Shown: piece by piece, positions 1,607-8,527 of the stretch
Position numbering within the stretch: position 1 is the first letter of the stretch
Layout of the letters: every line of letters begins with the position of its first letter
Source of the DNA: a virus
UHGV virus genome: UHGV-0414405
Reading direction: 5' to 3' (one strand)
DNA: 10,921 bases
Translations under genes and position numbers: made by a program
Notes under the pieces: model-generated
Told to the model about the DNA's origin: nothing
Seen by the model: only the letters and a program-made list of their open reading frames with translations
The model's database searches: none

Positions 1607-1670
1607 ATGGCGACATAACTACATGATTTAAAACTATACTTTTCTATAAGTTGAGGTTAAATTAACAATG

Positions 1671-2783: not shown

Positions 2784-2855
2784 TTGCGATCGCATGTAGT
2801 AGGAACTGGGCTTGACTGAATGCCTGCCGCCATTTTGCCGCCACTACCAAAGAAA

Positions 2856-2883
2856 AAGGGGCTACGCTTTCACGTAACCCCTT
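2856..2883. terminator. Bidirectional intrinsic terminator hairpin next to the ssrA-derived att core
   Basis: Stem AAGGGG(c)TACG / CGTA(a)CCCCTT (2856-2866 with 2873-2883), loop CTTTCA. T-rich tracts follow on both strands: GATTTATTT on + and TTTCTTTGG on the minus strand. On the minus strand it lies directly 3' of the tmRNA CCA end, so it likely doubles as the ssrA terminator after integration and as the RT-operon terminator. Confidence 0.5.
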
Positions 2884-2891
2884 GATTTATT

Positions 2892-2936
2892 TGGTGGAGC
2901 TGGCGGGAGTTGAACCCGCGTCCGAAATTCCTACAT
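2892..2936 (-). other. Phage attachment-site core: ~45-nt copy of the 3' end of ssrA (tmRNA)
   Basis: Reverse complement of 2892-2936 reads ATGTAGGAATTTCGGACGCGGGTTCAACTCCCGCCAGCTCCACCA, which matches my recollection of the 3' terminus (T-arm, acceptor, CCA) of enterobacterial tmRNA. The match ends abruptly at 2937. Only the 3' tail is present, flanked on both sides by phage genes. Confidence 0.6.
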
Positions 2937-2960
2937 ACCATTATTACTATAGCAAAAACA

Positions 2961-2988
2961 TTAACTTGCGTTTAAAATCAGCAAGTTA
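2961..2988 (-). terminator. Candidate intrinsic terminator for the int-membrane-protein transcript
   Basis: Inverted repeat TTAACTTGC (2961-2969) / GCAAGTTA (2981-2988) with an 11-nt loop, 34 nt downstream of the minus-strand ORF stop at 3022. On the minus strand it is followed by TGTTTTTGCT (reverse complement of 2951-2960). Confidence 0.45.
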
Positions 2989-3021
2989 GTATTATCTTGT
3001 GTTTGTCCGTTTTACTCATTT

Positions 3022-4068
3022 TTAATGCTCTGTCGCCAATCTGTCGCCATTGTAGGTCAACGAAGGTTGAGCCTTCCCTTTGTTTGTTACAATTTCATCA
3101 AAGATAGCTGGATTATTATCTTTCAGTAATCTTGCTAGTATAATGATTTGCCCAGACGAGCCATCATCCTTGAATGAAAGGAAATTATCGGTAATATCAA
3201 GAATATCAATGGTAAATTTGAAGTAGGTTTCAATTGTATCGCCAAGTTCAATGCTGGACATGAAGTTGGTAATCATTTCATATCCATCAAAGTATAAAGT
3301 TGCATGTTCATTTAACTCCATTGGAGTTAGGCAAAGCATTCGATTAAGTTCGGATAAGTGTTTTTCTATTGAATGAAGAGATTGCATTTGACGGATTAAA
3401 ACTTCGTCTAACTGAGAGCCACGATTAGATGAATGTATCTTCTCTAGGTTTTTTAGTATATCAACCCAGTGATTATTTACTTCACGTATGTATTCTTTAT
3501 CTGTATTTTTAGGCCGTCCCTTCTCTGGTGAGCTATTTATGAAAATATATCTATATAGATGTATTGGGTAGTTAATTTTATAACTTATCTCTTTAGTACC
3601 ATAATGACGTTCGCGTTTAATGGTTTTGTTAGGTAAATTGGTGAAATAATCAGTAACGAACTTTAGATGGCTATAGTAGCTATCAGATAGATTCTTTTGC
3701 TTGGTTTCCTCAATTTGTCGGTTTGTTTGAACTGTGCGGTGTATGTTTGCTACGACAGCAACAAATGGTATGGACAAAGAAAGTAAGGCGATAGGAAGCT
3801 TGCTAATTGCAATGAAATTATTAAAGCCCTCACTATCAAATTGAGGGGAGTGTCCAAGCCAGGAAAATATACCAAAGTATATCGCTGAAAATACAGGAAT
3901 CCTAAGTGATTGTTTAAATAAGTATTGACTTGTTAATGGCCTTTCATCCATGTTAAAGCCTTTTTTTGATACGCATAGATATAATTCAAGGCATATATAT
4001 ATAAAATATATTATGATAAGTAAGTACGATATCCATGGGTATTGTTGGATATAGTTATTAACAAGCAC
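3022..4068 (-). CDS. AT-rich hypothetical membrane protein (N-terminal TM helices plus ~230-aa soluble domain); accessory moron downstream of int
   Basis: Longest ORF begins at GTG 4068, overlapping the int stop by 11 nt (348 aa). The first in-frame ATG is at 3951-3949 (309 aa), preceded by AAAAAAAGG. Hydrophobic segments: IPVFSAIYFGIFSWLG and FIAISKLPIALLSLSIPFVAVVANI, plus WISYLLIIIYFIYICLELYLCV if the longer start is real. Strongly AT-rich relative to the backbone. No motif I can assign to a family. Confidence 0.55.
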   Translation of the reverse strand: MLVNNYIQQYPWISYLLIIIYFIYICLELYLCVSKKGFNMDERPLTSQYLFKQSLRIPVFSAIYFGIFSWLGHSPQFDSEGFNNFIAISKLPIALLSLSIPFVAVVANIHRTVQTNRQIEETKQKNLSDSYYSHLKFVTDYFTNLPNKTIKRERHYGTKEISYKINYPIHLYRYIFINSSPEKGRPKNTDKEYIREVNNHWVDILKNLEKIHSSNRGSQLDEVLIRQMQSLHSIEKHLSELNRMLCLTPMELNEHATLYFDGYEMITNFMSSIELGDTIETYFKFTIDILDITDNFLSFKDDGSSGQIIILARLLKDNNPAIFDEIVTNKGKAQPSLTYNGDRLATEH

Positions 4069-5098
4069 TTTCTAATTTTCTCCATCCAAGGTTAGCAAGA
4101 GGATTTTTGGTTACAGCATCTTCCAGATGGTCGGGAGCGAAGTGGGCGTAAATCATTGTCATTTTTATATCGACATGGCCCAGAATATCGCGCAGCACCA
4201 GTATGTTTCCGCCATTCATCATAAAGTGACTTGCAAATGTATGTCGTAATACGTGTGTGCATTGCCCTTCTGGTAGCTCGATACCAGCTCGTTTTACCGC
4301 ACGTTCAAAAGCTTTCCTACAAGGTGTAAATAATTTCCCCCTATTCTTAGGCAGTTCTTCATATAAATCCTTTGAAATAGGCACTGTTCGGTTTTTCTTT
4401 CCTTTAGTCTTGGTATAAGTGATACGGTATTTTGATACCTGATGACTCTGTAGGTTTTCGGCTTCGCTCCAGCGTGCGCCGGTGGCCAAGCATATTTTTG
4501 CAATCATCAGCAGACTGGGGCTTTGAGAATCAGCACAGGCATCCAGCAGACGTTTAATTTCTTCCGGGGTCAGGAACGCCAATTCACCCTCAGCAATTTT
4601 AAATGTTGGCAGCCCAGCAAGCGGGTTGGGGGCTGACCAGTGGCCCAGCTTTTTCAGTGTACCAAAAACAGATGATAGGTTGCGCTGTTCAAGATTTACC
4701 GTGCGGGGCTTAACGGGCGACATAAGCGTGCCATCTTCATTTCGTACTTCACCTTTTAACCGTGCTTCGCGGTATTTCGTAAACTCACCAGCTGTCAGTT
4801 CTGAGGCGATGGGATCGCCTAGACCATTACAGATAATTCTAAGTTTCGCCATGAGGCGCTTGGGGTCTGCGAGTGTTTGACCATACAGGGAATACCACAG
4901 CTCAATTAATTCTGATAGATGTCGCCGATCTTCCTTTTCCCCTAGCCATGGTTTTTTGTTCACTTCTTCCATTGTGAAGCTTTCAAACGCAATGGCTTCG
5001 CCTTTGGTAGCAAATTGCTTACGCACGCGCTTACCATTGCGTCCATTGGGATAGCACTCACACAACCATTTTCCGTTCGGCTGTTTTCTGATGGTCAT
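4058..5098 (-). CDS. int: Tyrosine site-specific integrase (P2/186-type), 346 aa
   Basis: C-terminal catalytic region CTHVLRHTFASHFMMNGGNILVLRDILGHVDIKMTMIYAH (H-x-x-R ... Y) plus upstream ATGARWSE (Arg box). ATG at 5098-5096 lies 3 nt after the cI stop, consistent with a cI-int operon. Located next to the att core. Confidence 0.92.
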   Translation of the reverse strand: MTIRKQPNGKWLCECYPNGRNGKRVRKQFATKGEAIAFESFTMEEVNKKPWLGEKEDRRHLSELIELWYSLYGQTLADPKRLMAKLRIICNGLGDPIASELTAGEFTKYREARLKGEVRNEDGTLMSPVKPRTVNLEQRNLSSVFGTLKKLGHWSAPNPLAGLPTFKIAEGELAFLTPEEIKRLLDACADSQSPSLLMIAKICLATGARWSEAENLQSHQVSKYRITYTKTKGKKNRTVPISKDLYEELPKNRGKLFTPCRKAFERAVKRAGIELPEGQCTHVLRHTFASHFMMNGGNILVLRDILGHVDIKMTMIYAHFAPDHLEDAVTKNPLANLGWRKLESAC

Positions 5099-5101
5099 AA
5101 G

Positions 5102-5734
5102 TTAGAGGTTCTTGATTACTTTGACTGCACGTCCTACGACTTCCACATCATCTACAGAACATTCAAATGAAGTGTCATCTTGGTTAACTACTATTTTGTT
5201 TCCGGGTATGCGCGCAATTTTGACGATGCTTTTAACTCCGTCCATATCGACTAACCAGAAGCCATTACTGACTTGTTTAACAGACGTATCCACTACAAAG
5301 CTATCATTAGCTGTTTTAACAAATAAAGCGTTGGATGAGTCACCATCGAGCAGGCTGCTATCAAGAAGAATTTCATCACTTGGCTGCAGTTCGCCGTTCT
5401 TCAGTTCAACACGTTTGATGCTAGGAGCAACGATCTTAGAAAGTGTTCTTACAGTGACGGGAGGTTCACTTTTGAGATTTGTTTCTTCGTTCTCACACGC
5501 ATACATATCTCCTTGACCAGTAGCCAGCCATAGAAGGGAAGCTCCTGTTTCAAGGGCACATTGGATTACCCATTCGGCAGGGAAGCTATCCCTTAAGTAT
5601 CTGTTAGCCATAGTGCTTTTTGATACTTCCAGATGTTCGCAGAGCTGCTGTCGTGAGCTGAAGTTGTAAGCCTTAATAAGCCTATTAATCGCATCGCGCC
5701 CACCACTATCATTCCCCGCCTTGATTAAACTCAT
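5102..5734 (-). CDS. cI: CI-type immunity repressor (HTH N-terminal domain, 186-CI-like architecture), 210 aa
   Basis: ATG at 5734-5732 is preceded by AAGAGG (reverse complement of 5742-5747). N-terminal HTH-like segment SRQQLCEHLEVSKSTMANRYLR. Divergent from the early operon and directly upstream of int. I see no S24 peptidase motif (no G-D-S-M ... K). Confidence 0.8.
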   Translation of the reverse strand: MSLIKAGNDSGGRDAINRLIKAYNFSSRQQLCEHLEVSKSTMANRYLRDSFPAEWVIQCALETGASLLWLATGQGDMYACENEETNLKSEPPVTVRTLSKIVAPSIKRVELKNGELQPSDEILLDSSLLDGDSSNALFVKTANDSFVVDTSVKQVSNGFWLVDMDGVKSIVKIARIPGNKIVVNQDDTSFECSVDDVEVVGRAVKVIKNL

Positions 5735-5745
5735 AATCAAACCTC

Positions 5746-5774
5746 TTGACGTATATAAAAAGTGATCCTAATAT
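5746..5774 (+). promoter_or_regulatory. Candidate early lytic promoter (pR-like), sigma70 type
   Basis: TTGACG (5746-5751), 17-bp spacer, TAATAT (5769-5774), reading toward the Cox/Apl-like gene. It overlaps the cI ribosome-binding region on the other strand. Confidence 0.5.
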
Positions 5775-5850
5775 CCATTCATGGTTTGAAAAGCAAAACC
5801 AAACCACATAAAACAAGATAAAACGAAACCAAACTAAGAGATACTGCACT

Positions 5851-6093
5851 ATGAGTACTGATATTTCAATTCGTGTACCTAAAGAGATGGCAACGCCTGC
5901 TGAGTTCGCGGAATGGGAAGGTATCTCCCGCGGCTCCGTGTATCAAAAAATTCACCATGGTCAGCTTGCTAAATACATGGTCAAGAAAGAAAAAAACAAA
6001 GGCCGCGTAAGCCTGCGTTATTTAATGTACAAAACCGATCAGGTCCGTGAATCCCTCGGTCATTCCAACTTCCGCGTCATTGTTGGTAAGTAA
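5851..6093 (+). CDS. apl: Cox/Apl-family excisionase and transcriptional regulator (80 aa)
   Basis: First gene of the rightward operon, divergent from cI. The segment PAEFAEWEGISRGSVYQKIHHGQLA resembles the P2 Cox HTH region (...EFAKLIGKSTGAVRRMIDKGKLP...) as I recall it. Size is typical. Confidence 0.6.
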   Translation: MSTDISIRVPKEMATPAEFAEWEGISRGSVYQKIHHGQLAKYMVKKEKNKGRVSLRYLMYKTDQVRESLGHSNFRVIVGK

Positions 6094-6125
6094 GTTCAAT
6101 TATGAGAACTTTCTAAGGGGCTAGC

Positions 6126-6635
6126 ATGTTTGATTATAAGATTTCCAAACACCCGCATTTTGATGAAGCCTGTAGAGCTTTTGCACTTCGTCACAATATG
6201 GCGAAGCTGGCAGAACGTGCAGGAATGAATGTCCAGACTTTGCGAAACAAACTCAACCCAGATCAACCGCATCAGCTAAATGCGCCAGAAATCTGGCTGC
6301 TTACCGATCTGACTGAAGATTCAACGCTGATAGATGGTTTTCTGGCACAGATTCACTGCCTGCCATGTGTACCGATTAATGAGGTAGCAAAAGAGAAACT
6401 GCCGCATTACGTCATGAGTGCAACCGCAGAGATCGGGCGTGTTGCTGCAGGTGCGGTATCTGGCGATGTAAAAACCAGTGCAGGTCGTCGTGATGCCATC
6501 AGCAGCATTAACTCTGTAACACGACTGATGGCGCTGGCTGCTGTTTCATTGCAGGCCCGTTTACAGGCTAACCCTGCGATGGCGAGTGCAGTTGATACCA
6601 TGACTGGCCTCGGTGCTTCATTCGGTTTGCTGTGA
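6126..6635 (+). CDS. cII: Phage 186 CII-like transcriptional activator (169 aa)
   Basis: ATG at 6126 is preceded by AAGGGG. Translation MFDYKISKHPHFDEACRAFALRHNMAKLAERAGMNVQTLRNKLNPDQPH... closely resembles my recollection of 186 CII in sequence, length and position (second gene of the early operon). Confidence 0.8.
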   Translation: MFDYKISKHPHFDEACRAFALRHNMAKLAERAGMNVQTLRNKLNPDQPHQLNAPEIWLLTDLTEDSTLIDGFLAQIHCLPCVPINEVAKEKLPHYVMSATAEIGRVAAGAVSGDVKTSAGRRDAISSINSVTRLMALAAVSLQARLQANPAMASAVDTMTGLGASFGLL

Positions 6636-6642
6636 GGTGCTT

Positions 6643-6843
6643 ATGCTGACGAAAGAACCATCATTTGCATCGCTGCTGGTAAAACAAAGCCCGGCAATGC
6701 ACTACGGTCACGGCTGGATAATGGGTAAGGATGGTAAACGCTGGCATCCGTGCCGTTCACAAGATGAATTGCTGGCAGAACTATCAACGAAAAAACGGGG
6801 GAACAAATGGCTATTGAAGGCGCTGCGGCGACTGTTCCATTAA
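6643..6843 (+). CDS. Small hypothetical early protein (66 aa), positional equivalent of the 186 fil / P2 orf78 slot
   Basis: ATG at 6643 is preceded by GAGGTG (6634-6639), just after the cII stop. The track ORF 6613..6843 starts at an upstream GTG without an RBS. Basic C-terminus. No recognisable motif. Confidence 0.4.
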   Translation: MLTKEPSFASLLVKQSPAMHYGHGWIMGKDGKRWHPCRSQDELLAELSTKKRGNKWLLKALRRLFH

Positions 6844-7148
6844 GCCCCGGTGAACGCCTGAATGGACTTAATCACATTGCGGAGTTAAGGGCGAAAGTAT
6901 TTGGCCTGAATATTGAGTCAGAGCTTGAGCGGTTTATTAAAGATATGCGTGATCCACGGGATATCAATAACGAAAAAAATAAACGAGCACTGGCTGCCAT
7001 ATTCTTTATGGCAAAAATTCCAGCTGAACGTCATAGCATCAGCATTAATGAGCTGACCACTGACGAAAAGCGGGAGTTGATTAAAGCAATGAATCATTTT
7101 CGTGCAGTGGTGAGCTTATTTCCCAGACGGCTAACCATGCCGAATTAA
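6807..7148 (+). CDS. Hypothetical early-operon protein (113 aa)
   Basis: ATG at 6807 is preceded by GGGGGA (6796-6802). Overlaps the previous ORF by 37 nt in another frame. Codon usage matches the backbone. No motif assigned. Confidence 0.5.
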   Translation: MAIEGAAATVPLSPGERLNGLNHIAELRAKVFGLNIESELERFIKDMRDPRDINNEKNKRALAAIFFMAKIPAERHSISINELTTDEKRELIKAMNHFRAVVSLFPRRLTMPN

Positions 7149-7215
7149 CCAACTAATGAAATTAATGGCGTAAACCCGCCGGGCATCCCTTTATCTAAAT
7201 TCAGGAGAATTGATT

Positions 7216-7449
7216 ATGCGTAATATTGAAACCCTCACGACTAAAACCGGACCGGATGATGCATGGCTTAATATTTTACTGACAGAGGCTCGTCTGGAAG
7301 AACGCCGGGCAAGGGCTGAAGCAATGGCAGCTCGCCTTGATAGCCTGGCGTGTCATATCTCATCCCGCCAGCTAAACCACGTCGAAGCAGCAGAACTGCT
7401 GCGTGTGACCGCTGAAGCAATCCAGAACGAAGCGCAGGAGATCCACTAA
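7216..7449 (+). CDS. Hypothetical early-operon protein (77 aa)
   Basis: ATG at 7216 is preceded by AGGAGA (7203-7208). The track start at 7210 is a TTG two codons upstream. Its stop overlaps the next start (TAATG at 7447-7451). Confidence 0.45.
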   Translation: MRNIETLTTKTGPDDAWLNILLTEARLEERRARAEAMAARLDSLACHISSRQLNHVEAAELLRVTAEAIQNEAQEIH

Positions 7450-7673
7450 TGGCTGATGCAATGGATCTCGTACAGCAGCGCGTTGAAGAAGAACGCCAGC
7501 GCCACATTGCTGCCCGTGCCAAAACACCAGGCGTGTCTCGCGTGCTTTGCATTGAGTGTGAAGCGCCAATTCCGCCAGCACGCCGCCGCGCCATTCCGGG
7601 AGTGCAGCTTTGCATTACCTGTCAGGAAATCGCAGAGCTGAAAGGTAAACATTACAACGGAGGCGCTGTATGA
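7449..7673 (+). CDS. TraR/DksA-family C4 zinc-finger protein (74 aa)
   Basis: Translation ...VLCIECEAPIPPARRRAIPGVQLCITCQE... has the C-x2-C-x17-C-x2-C pattern typical of phage TraR/DksA-like zinc fingers. Translationally coupled to the neighbours on both sides. Confidence 0.75.
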   Translation: MADAMDLVQQRVEEERQRHIAARAKTPGVSRVLCIECEAPIPPARRRAIPGVQLCITCQEIAELKGKHYNGGAV

Positions 7674-8527
7674 GCACCATCCTGAAATGGGCGGGTAATA
7701 AAACCGCCATTATGTCCGAACTGAAAAAACACCTTCCTGCTGGCCCGCGACTGGTTGAACCTTTCGCGGGTTCTTGTGCTGTGATGATGGAGACGGATTA
7801 CCCCAGCTATTTGGTTGCGGATATTAATCCTGATTTAATCAACCTCTATAAAAAGGTTGCCGCTGATTGTGAATCGTTTATATCTCGCGCCAGGGTTTTA
7901 TTTGAGATCGCAAACAGGGAGGTGGCTTATTACAACATAAGGCAGGAGTTTAATTACTCCACTGAAATTACTGATTTCATGAAAGCGGTATATTTCCTGT
8001 ATCTCAATCGTCACGGTTACCGTGGTTTATGTCGCTATAACAAGAGCGGGCATTTCAACATTCCCTACGGTAATTATAAAAATCCGTATTTCCCTGAAAA
8101 AGAACTTCGCACATTTGCAGAAAAAGCCCAGCGAGCAACGTTTGTCTGCGCCAGCTTTGATGAAACGCTGGCGATGTTGAAGGCGGGGGATGTGGTGTAT
8201 TGCGATCCGCCGTATGACGGTACGTTTTCCGGCTATCACACTGATGGTTTCACTGAAGATGACCAGTATCACCTGGCATCCGTTCTTGAACATCGGTCAT
8301 CAGAAGGACATCCGGTCATTGTTTCTAACAGTGACACATCCCTGATCCGTTCGCTGTATCGCAATTTTACTCACCACTACATCAAGGCAAAACGCAGCAT
8401 CGGCGTAGCAGCTGGTGAGAGTAAATCTGCAACAGAAATCATCGCTGTTTCCGGGCCGCGCTGCTGGGTGGGATTTGATCCTTCGCGTGGCGTGGATAGT
8501 TCTGCCGTGTACGGAGTGCGTGCATGA
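7670..8527 (+). CDS. dam: DNA N6-adenine methyltransferase, Dam family (285 aa)
   Basis: N-terminal KWAGNK motif, AdoMet-binding EPFAGSCAV (FxGxxG), and catalytic DPPY in [15 protein letters not shown] 7670 overlaps the upstream stop (ATGA) and is preceded by ACGGAGG. GATC specificity is inferred from the family. Confidence 0.9.

Follow-up and report, generated by a model that had tools for sequence, protein, structure and literature searches.

The stretch analysed here (hereafter the window) comprises 10,921 nt of the virus genome UHGV-0414405 and corresponds to the late/early junction of a temperate phage of the P2 family, Fels-2/186 type. On the plus strand, the gene for gpD (197-1297) is followed by an ogr/delta-type late activator (1388-1606), which is the last conserved gene on the P-arm side, and then by a retron-like module (1616-2783) that occupies the slot between ogr and attP. 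This left cargo includes a small ORF of 57-62 aa with one TM-like segment (1853-2041) and a reverse transcriptase (RT) of 257 aa (2010-2783, stop codon at 2781-2783), and it is followed by a 3' untranslated tail (2784-2823) located outside the conserved attP. On the other side of the attP, the minus strand carries orf348 (3022-4068), the right cargo gene, in the slot between int and attP, then a tyrosine integrase (4058-5098) and a 186-type CI repressor (5102-5740). The plus strand continues with an Apl/Cox-like excisionase/repressor gene (5851-6093; PHROG 6912 and 575), the presumed directionality factor, whose homologue in the phage Cartapus is annotated as a Cox-like excisionase, and with cII and then replication genes. 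The integrase combines a catalytic domain (PF00589) with an N-terminal arm-binding domain (PF24624, Int_N), being 93% identical to the integrase of Fels-2. The closest record is the Klebsiella phage Kp4865-2, with 99.6% identity on either side of window position 2889/2890, and a contig from GCA_022198845.1 is 100% identical to window positions 2890-8068.

The attP core between the two cargo regions reproduces without a mismatch the final 45 nt of ssrA, the gene for tmRNA, on the minus strand (2892-2936). This resemblance had been pointed out in the initial annotation and is fully borne out: the reverse complement of the segment, ATGTAGGAATTTCGGACGCGGGTTCAACTCCCGCCAGCTCCACCA, shows 45/45 identity to the ssrA 3' end and is matched in all 5426 complete E. 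coli genomes, and in the sampled E. coli rows the match is 100% and lies inside the annotated 3' end of tmRNA. Moreover, the Rfam tmRNA model gives a partial match to its 3' end (E=4e-11). The copy in the window is a fragment, because ARAGORN finds no whole tmRNA in it. Matches to the Rfam families tmRNA_permuted, mir-2235, sbrA, and BjrC68 were disregarded, being below their gathering scores. In terms of tmRNA architecture, the core spans from the anticodon-loop-equivalent position through the T arm and the acceptor 3' strand to the CCA. In the Klebsiella attB flank, identity runs 3 nt past the core, to position 2889, and the shared block TTTGGTGG...CTACAT corresponds to window 2889-2936, which comprises the 45 nt of ssrA and as many as 3 nt past the CCA.

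The integrated state was established with a three-way alignment of the window, the RT-bearing chromosomes, and the int-side lysogen junctions. In this alignment, the window has the order P arm, core, P' arm (P-O-P'). The eight chromosomes with the exact RT instead show the P arm, the core, and then the remainder of ssrA, where ARAGORN calls an intact tmRNA of 363 nt, followed by smpB, ratA, rnfH, bamE, and recN in seven of the eight; in the other one (L215), the tmRNA is followed by an efflux-type gene. At the opposite end, Kp4865-2 and GCA_022198845.1 present the host flank, the core as a displaced 3' fragment, the P' arm, orf348, and int, this junction being identical to the window from position 2890 at 100% in GCA_022198845.1 and at 99.6% in Kp4865-2. 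The prophage breakpoint is located at 2889/2890 in these two records and at 2936/2937 in the eight RT-bearing chromosomes (L209-L216). Both junction types expected for integration into ssrA, an intact gene and a displaced 3' fragment, are then present in host genomes, which substantiates the earlier proposal that the attP is built on the ssrA 3' end and that integration regenerates the gene. Also, among 120 IMG/VR loci that carry the hairpin located next to the core (2856-2883, see below), 74 are joined to the body of ssrA via the core and six are in the attP configuration; in several more of the IMG/VR hairpin loci, the partner is an ssrA variant from another genus. Of 17 species-representative genomes, 13 have an intact tmRNA gene directly next to the hairpin.

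Displaced fragments frequently show small deletions in GCTCCACCA (nine loci; for example GCCAGC-CCACCA), with the same variant appearing across different host-flank contexts; decay, secondary sites, or traces of earlier elements are candidate causes. In Klebsiella sp. WOUb02, a replicon labelled 'plasmid unnamed6' (774-775 kb) carries the end of a Fels-2-type prophage along with an intact tmRNA gene. At L075 (1028-7110) and in the contig pair L091/L025, prophages are reduced to remnants of 6-12 kb in which both att junctions persist, with the order ssrA, P arm, cargo, ogr, D, U, T fragment, cI, int, cargo, P' arm, and displaced fragment; in them, the interval from gpT to cI is wholly deleted.

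Taking the junctions together with the comparisons of arms, hairpin, and integrase given here, we assign a probability of about 0.93 to the reading that a P2-like temperate phage of the Fels-2/186 type uses this region, with its ssrA 3' end, as attP. An opposite reading would be that the ssrA-like segment is a nonfunctional relic of an ancestral attP, in a phage that integrates elsewhere through a different core. Such relics do exist, at least 14 further IMG/VR loci holding a degenerate form of the hairpin-ssrA module in which the hairpin is kept but the ssrA end after it and the arm sites have degenerated, and phage KP12 combines the same type of arm site with a different core and integrase arrangement. 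However, the copy in the window is perfect at all 45 positions, lysogens with exactly these arms break at its edges, beside ssrA, and the integrase is close to that of Fels-2, whose ssrA site is annotated, all of which leaves the relic reading with almost no weight. No integration at another locus with another core was found for these arms. The other question concerns the state of the DNA, since the initial annotation offered either a phage or circular attP configuration or a junction between tandem elements, and the alignment confirms the P-O-P' order that both share. The window is most simply read as coming from a free or circular phage genome. In a tandem or rearranged prophage within a chromosome, the same P-O-P' would be regenerated between the late end of one element and the int end of the next, and this does occur: the chromosome of E. 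coli 503440 (L004, ~8001-8276) has a contiguous tail-D-ogr-attP-orf348 homologue-int arrangement with an IS100-type IS in gpA, and a 186-type P' arm and a P2-type (GTGGAC) P arm meet in L033, which indicates tandem arrays of different P2-like phages at ssrA. Also, 125 tandem arrays were reported in the Islander survey (PMC4383910). Nonetheless, a single prophage, Kp4865-2, has one end matching each half of the window at 99.6%, and the virion-derived genomes of Cartapus, SEN8, and MLG42 have the same contiguous order as the window, making a tandem junction an improbable origin for it. A tandem dilysogen of one phage would be indistinguishable from the free genome, and in that case the structure and function of the attP would be the same.

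With regard to the arms of the attP, the repeat TGCCGCCA, proposed earlier as a candidate arm-type site, is found at 2825-2832 and 2836-2843 as described. The view of a single pair does not hold, this pair being half of a four-copy family of 11-nt sites that start at 2824, 2835, 3030, and 3041. The P-arm pair (CTGCCGCCATT and TTGCCGCCACT, 2824-2845) and the P'-arm pair (CTGTCGCCAAT and CTGTCGCCATT, 3030-3051) are all on the plus strand, with the same orientation and an 11-nt register inside each pair. The motif TGYCGCCA appears five times in the window against 0.81 expected, and none of 200 shuffles reaches five. Moreover, the family matches the consensus tgccGCCActt of the 186-type integrase arm sites, described as direct repeats flanking the core in 186-type P2-like phages (PMC3448106). 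Both pairs are found in Cartapus and KP12, and the RE-2010 record, which begins at the att site, holds the P' pair. In the sets of unique arms compared (61 for P', 71 for P), the pairs belong to the best-conserved columns, and the distance between the P' pair and the core is constant in every locus with a relative of int that contains the core. This comparison supports that the four copies are putative arm-type binding sites of the integrase. A fifth copy of the motif, inverted (TGTCGCCA, 1608-1615, minus strand), is located right after the ogr stop codon, 1.2 kb from the attP, and is probably a relic or a chance match. Cartapus has an inverted copy 22 nt to the left of its P pair (L001, 2621-2628), and the RT cargo of the window may have been inserted between the inverted copy and the P pair.

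Other elements of the arms are less defined. The A/T-rich spacer of the P' arm (2937-3029) has a constant length and contains blocks conserved among the 61 unique P' arms (2937-2942, 2954-2960, 2971-2981, 2985-2989, and 2997-3014), being candidate sites for IHF and Apl/Cox. Two matches to the IHF consensus (WATCARNNNNTTR) are present in the window against 1.0 expected, and both are in the attP: one at 2875-2887 on the minus strand, overlapping the core-proximal half of the hairpin, and another at 2976-2988 on the plus strand. The diagnostic T of the consensus is missing in most relatives at both matches, and these are weak candidates. The P' arm and the cI-apl switch region have in common a 9-mer and a 7-mer, a statistically weak coincidence: ACAAGATAA and TAAAACG appear both at 5808-5825 and in the best-conserved P' block (2992-3014, minus strand), and these words might be recognition sites of Apl/Cox. 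Repeats of ATAAAAC, at a distance of 10 nt, are present between cI and apl. An inverted repeat in the spacer (2957-2969/2981-2993) was discarded, not being conserved among relatives. In the P arm, conservation collapses to the left of position 2824 (71 unique arms). Beyond this limit lies the palindrome TGCGATCGCA (2785-2794), to which attention had been drawn for its Dam site immediately after the RT stop codon. Its presence is correct, but it has no apparent significance as a Dam-regulated or protein-binding element: ten perfect palindromes of 10 bp are present in the window where 10.7 would be expected, the window shows no enrichment of GATC, and the palindrome belongs to nonconserved cargo sequence.

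The hairpin at 2856-2883 has a stem of 12 bp and a loop of 4 nt, and starts 8 nt past the CCA of ssrA. Its position and the T-rich tracts on both sides agree with the initial annotation. On the minus strand the stem is followed by TTTTTCTTT and, together with the U-tract (2846-2855), passes the terminator scan as an intrinsic terminator (2846-2883), with a ΔG of -27.8 kcal/mol and a z-score of -5.45. On the plus strand the T-rich TTGATTTATTT follows the stem, two G-U pairs become A-C mismatches, the ΔG is -23.8 kcal/mol, and the terminator scan does not flag the element. The greater strength on the minus strand suggests that the element is optimised for the strand that reads ssrA and int, where it is predicted to act as a rho-independent terminator.

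The description of this hairpin as the terminator of ssrA is not sustained. The native ssrA terminator, GCCCGCA...TGCGGGCTTTTTT (GCCCGCA...TGCGGGC and a T-run), is located ~45 nt after the CCA and is unrelated to the hairpin, of which ~24 nt are conserved in the 71 unique P arms. If the hairpin had been a host terminator captured along with the 3' end of the gene, it should be found downstream of ssrA in hosts, and the terminal repeat of 84 bp annotated in RE-2010, which has the hairpin at both prophage ends, is what would be expected if the host attB flank had already carried it. However, about 30 different host flanks past the displaced fragment have a different terminator, or none, and an E. 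coli ssrA locus without an island lacks the hairpin. Moreover, of the 17 species genomes with the hairpin beside an ssrA end, 15 also have phage arm sites next to it and one more has a gpD remnant there, which makes it phage-linked in 16. A phage remnant already resident in the host, or a tandem array, is a better explanation for the RE-2010 repeat, and a host origin of the hairpin is very improbable. Judging from these sequence comparisons, the hairpin is a phage-borne substitute rather than the terminator of ssrA itself.

The same hairpin is also present in P2-like phages with P2-type arm sites (GTGGAC) and in P2-like phages with shorter blocks of ssrA identity, of 12-37 nt; nine loci of the short-block/P2-type-arm kind were noted. 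One hairpin-ssrA module seems to have been combined with integrases of different crossover subsites. We found no published description of a hairpin-ssrA module common to P2-like phages with different integrase arm types and crossover subsites.

For the phage of the window, the position of strand exchange is approached through the length of the block. The attL/attR pairs found on the same contig are identical across it, with no polymorphism bounding the crossover, except that two displaced fragments (L071 and L062) carry small deletions close to the CCA. Position 7 of the core (G/A) covaries with the host. Because the block is identical and position 7 follows the host, the paired junctions give no bound on the crossover. 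A block of 45 nt equals the distance between the anticodon loop and the CCA in a tRNA, which by analogy suggests a subsite of the anticodon type, a class described by Williams and colleagues (PMC4383910). Strand exchange would then probably occur near the 5' edge of the identity block, at the anticodon-loop-equivalent subsite.

Both intervals adjacent to the attP, ogr-attP and int-attP, are variable cargo slots. In the left one, the distance from the end of ogr to the hairpin falls into classes of ~100 nt (35 loci, including Fels-2), 500-560 nt, 631 nt (32 loci, with a gene of 160 aa), 970-1015 nt, ~1147 nt, and 1254 nt, this last with the RT module. In the right one, the distance from the int stop codon to the P' pair is 0 in many loci, ~0.7, 1.0-1.25, 1.5, 1.9, 2.2, and up to 2.7 kb in others. 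Its contents include relatives of orf348, a family of ~400 aa (annotated as RES in Cartapus), a family of 490-513 aa, membrane proteins of 220 aa, and a defence gene of the dCTP deaminase type in L055 (PADLOC dCTPase, E=2e-146). The families of ~400, 490-513, and 220 aa (L022, L043, L051, L070, and other loci) have no match in Pfam or PADLOC and are candidate defence genes. A hotspot between int and att in P2-like phages was recently noted (PMC13586616); mention of the ogr-att slot was not found in that paper, nor was a published description of this slot found.

The left cargo of the window contains a structured noncoding stretch of ~180 nt (~1655-1860, z-score of -2.95) bracketed by an inverted repeat (1668-1678/1840-1850). 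The RT matches curated retron and DRT classes weakly (PADLOC RT_VI, 63 bits; NCBIfam St85, 49.5 against a cut-off of 235) and belongs to a family of ~255-aa RTs from Enterobacterales, named merely 'reverse transcriptase domain-containing protein' in the sources. The module may represent an unclassified type of retron with a tiny membrane effector. On the right, the orf348 product has three TM-like segments at its N-terminus, and its C-terminal ~230 aa are soluble; it belongs to PHROG 17460, of unknown function, with a weak match to the PADLOC '2TM effector' (E=2e-4). The gene overlaps the int stop codon by 11 nt, and its last nine codons overlap the P' pair. With these codons and the stop inside the conserved P' arm, the insertion point is placed between the int stop codon and the arm pair. 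Diverged relatives of orf348 fill the same slot in L016, L017, and L077. In L009, whose integrase is 100% identical, orf348 is split by a DDE-type transposase (IS) gene.

The initial annotation also stated that the RT module and orf348 would reside at opposite prophage ends as independent cargo. Their location on either side of the attP, and the two junction types described above, corroborate the first point. For the second one, among 5426 complete E. coli genomes, 28 carry the RT and 14 carry orf348, with no overlap among the matches listed; the exact RT is present in 2610 index blocks, whereas the exact orf348 is in one contig, and orf348 is also found with a different left cargo. The idea that both constitute a single system assembled solely in the circular form was rejected, given that the genes are convergent and that they neither co-occur among the matches listed nor keep the same partner. 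These comparisons support the view that RT and orf348 assort independently.

From the features of the locus, a sequence of events can be proposed. The N-terminal domain of the heterobivalent tyrosine integrase would bind the two tandem arm sites of each arm (2824-2845 in P, 3030-3051 in P'), and the enzyme would also bind core sites located within the 45-48 bp identical to the host ssrA 3' end; along with one or more host bending proteins, it would recombine attP with ssrA. Integration would split ssrA, the phage copy (2892-2936) replacing the lost 3' end and the hairpin (2856-2883) replacing the native terminator, and in the lysogen ssrA transcripts would presumably terminate 8-10 nt past the CCA. 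An intact tmRNA gene would be left beside the ogr/RT end of the prophage, with the original 3' fragment and the native terminator displaced to the orf348/int end, where the int-orf348 transcript of the prophage would run into the native terminator. Excision would need the Apl/Cox-like protein, and in the excised phage the hairpin would be downstream of int-orf348 and would end these transcripts. The retron-like RT module and the membrane-anchored orf348 protein would be unlinked in the prophage. A wider proposal, that the attP of the Fels-2 group is a two-sided cargo hotspot in which the hairpin and the native terminator swap partners on integration, is possible but doubtful at present. If true, the mRNAs of int and the cargo genes would have state-dependent 3' ends, with a logic like that of lambda sib, and defence cargo would be located at both prophage termini.

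The value of this analysis is mostly in annotation. The prophage ends are placed at single-base resolution, 2889/2890 on one side and 2936/2937 on the other, the RT module and orf348 should be regarded as mobile phage cargo, mutually independent, and not as host genes, and the ssrA fragment and the hairpin should not be annotated as a tmRNA gene or a host terminator. Moreover, the variable slots on both sides of the attP in Fels-2-type phages would be useful for the mining of defence genes. The survey of the two slots extends published work and opens no new question.

Several known systems offer points of comparison. As in the sib/tI element of lambda, the hairpin lies beyond attP downstream of int solely in the nonintegrated form; the likeness to retroregulation is a functional analogy, and RNase III processing or differential expression of int would be pure inference here. 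As in the islands that target tDNA (Islander), the split target is restored by a 3' gene fragment within the attP, and the element is delimited by the regenerated gene at one end and the displaced fragment at the other, tmRNA being the most enriched island target (PMC4383910). However, unlike in generic tDNA islands, int is distal to the intact ssrA, beside the displaced fragment, and a cargo gene is located between int and the att site. The arm consensus tgccGCCActt, the direct repeats in both arms, and the CI/Apl/CII module are those of coliphage 186, whose target gene (tRNA-Ile) and core are different. The site type is already known from Fels-2, SopEPhi, and RE-2010, and there is nothing new in the attP itself. 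An attP in ssrA was reportedly described by Pelludat et al. in 2003 (cited in PMC3448106) for Fels-2 and SopEPhi, P2-like phages of Salmonella. The Fels-2 record (NC_010463) annotates the same 47 bp as attP, and the window has in common with this phage an identical core of 45-47 bp, the hairpin, the type and layout of the arm sites, the closely related integrase, and the gene order D-ogr-attP-int-cI-apl-cII. Nonetheless, Fels-2 has three direct sites in the P arm, against two in the window, and also a separate ogr terminator. Finally, Fels-2 has no cargo beside its attP, with ~100 nt between ogr and the hairpin and the int stop codon abutting the P' pair, whereas the window holds 1.2 kb of RT cargo on one side and 1.0 kb of orf348 on the other.
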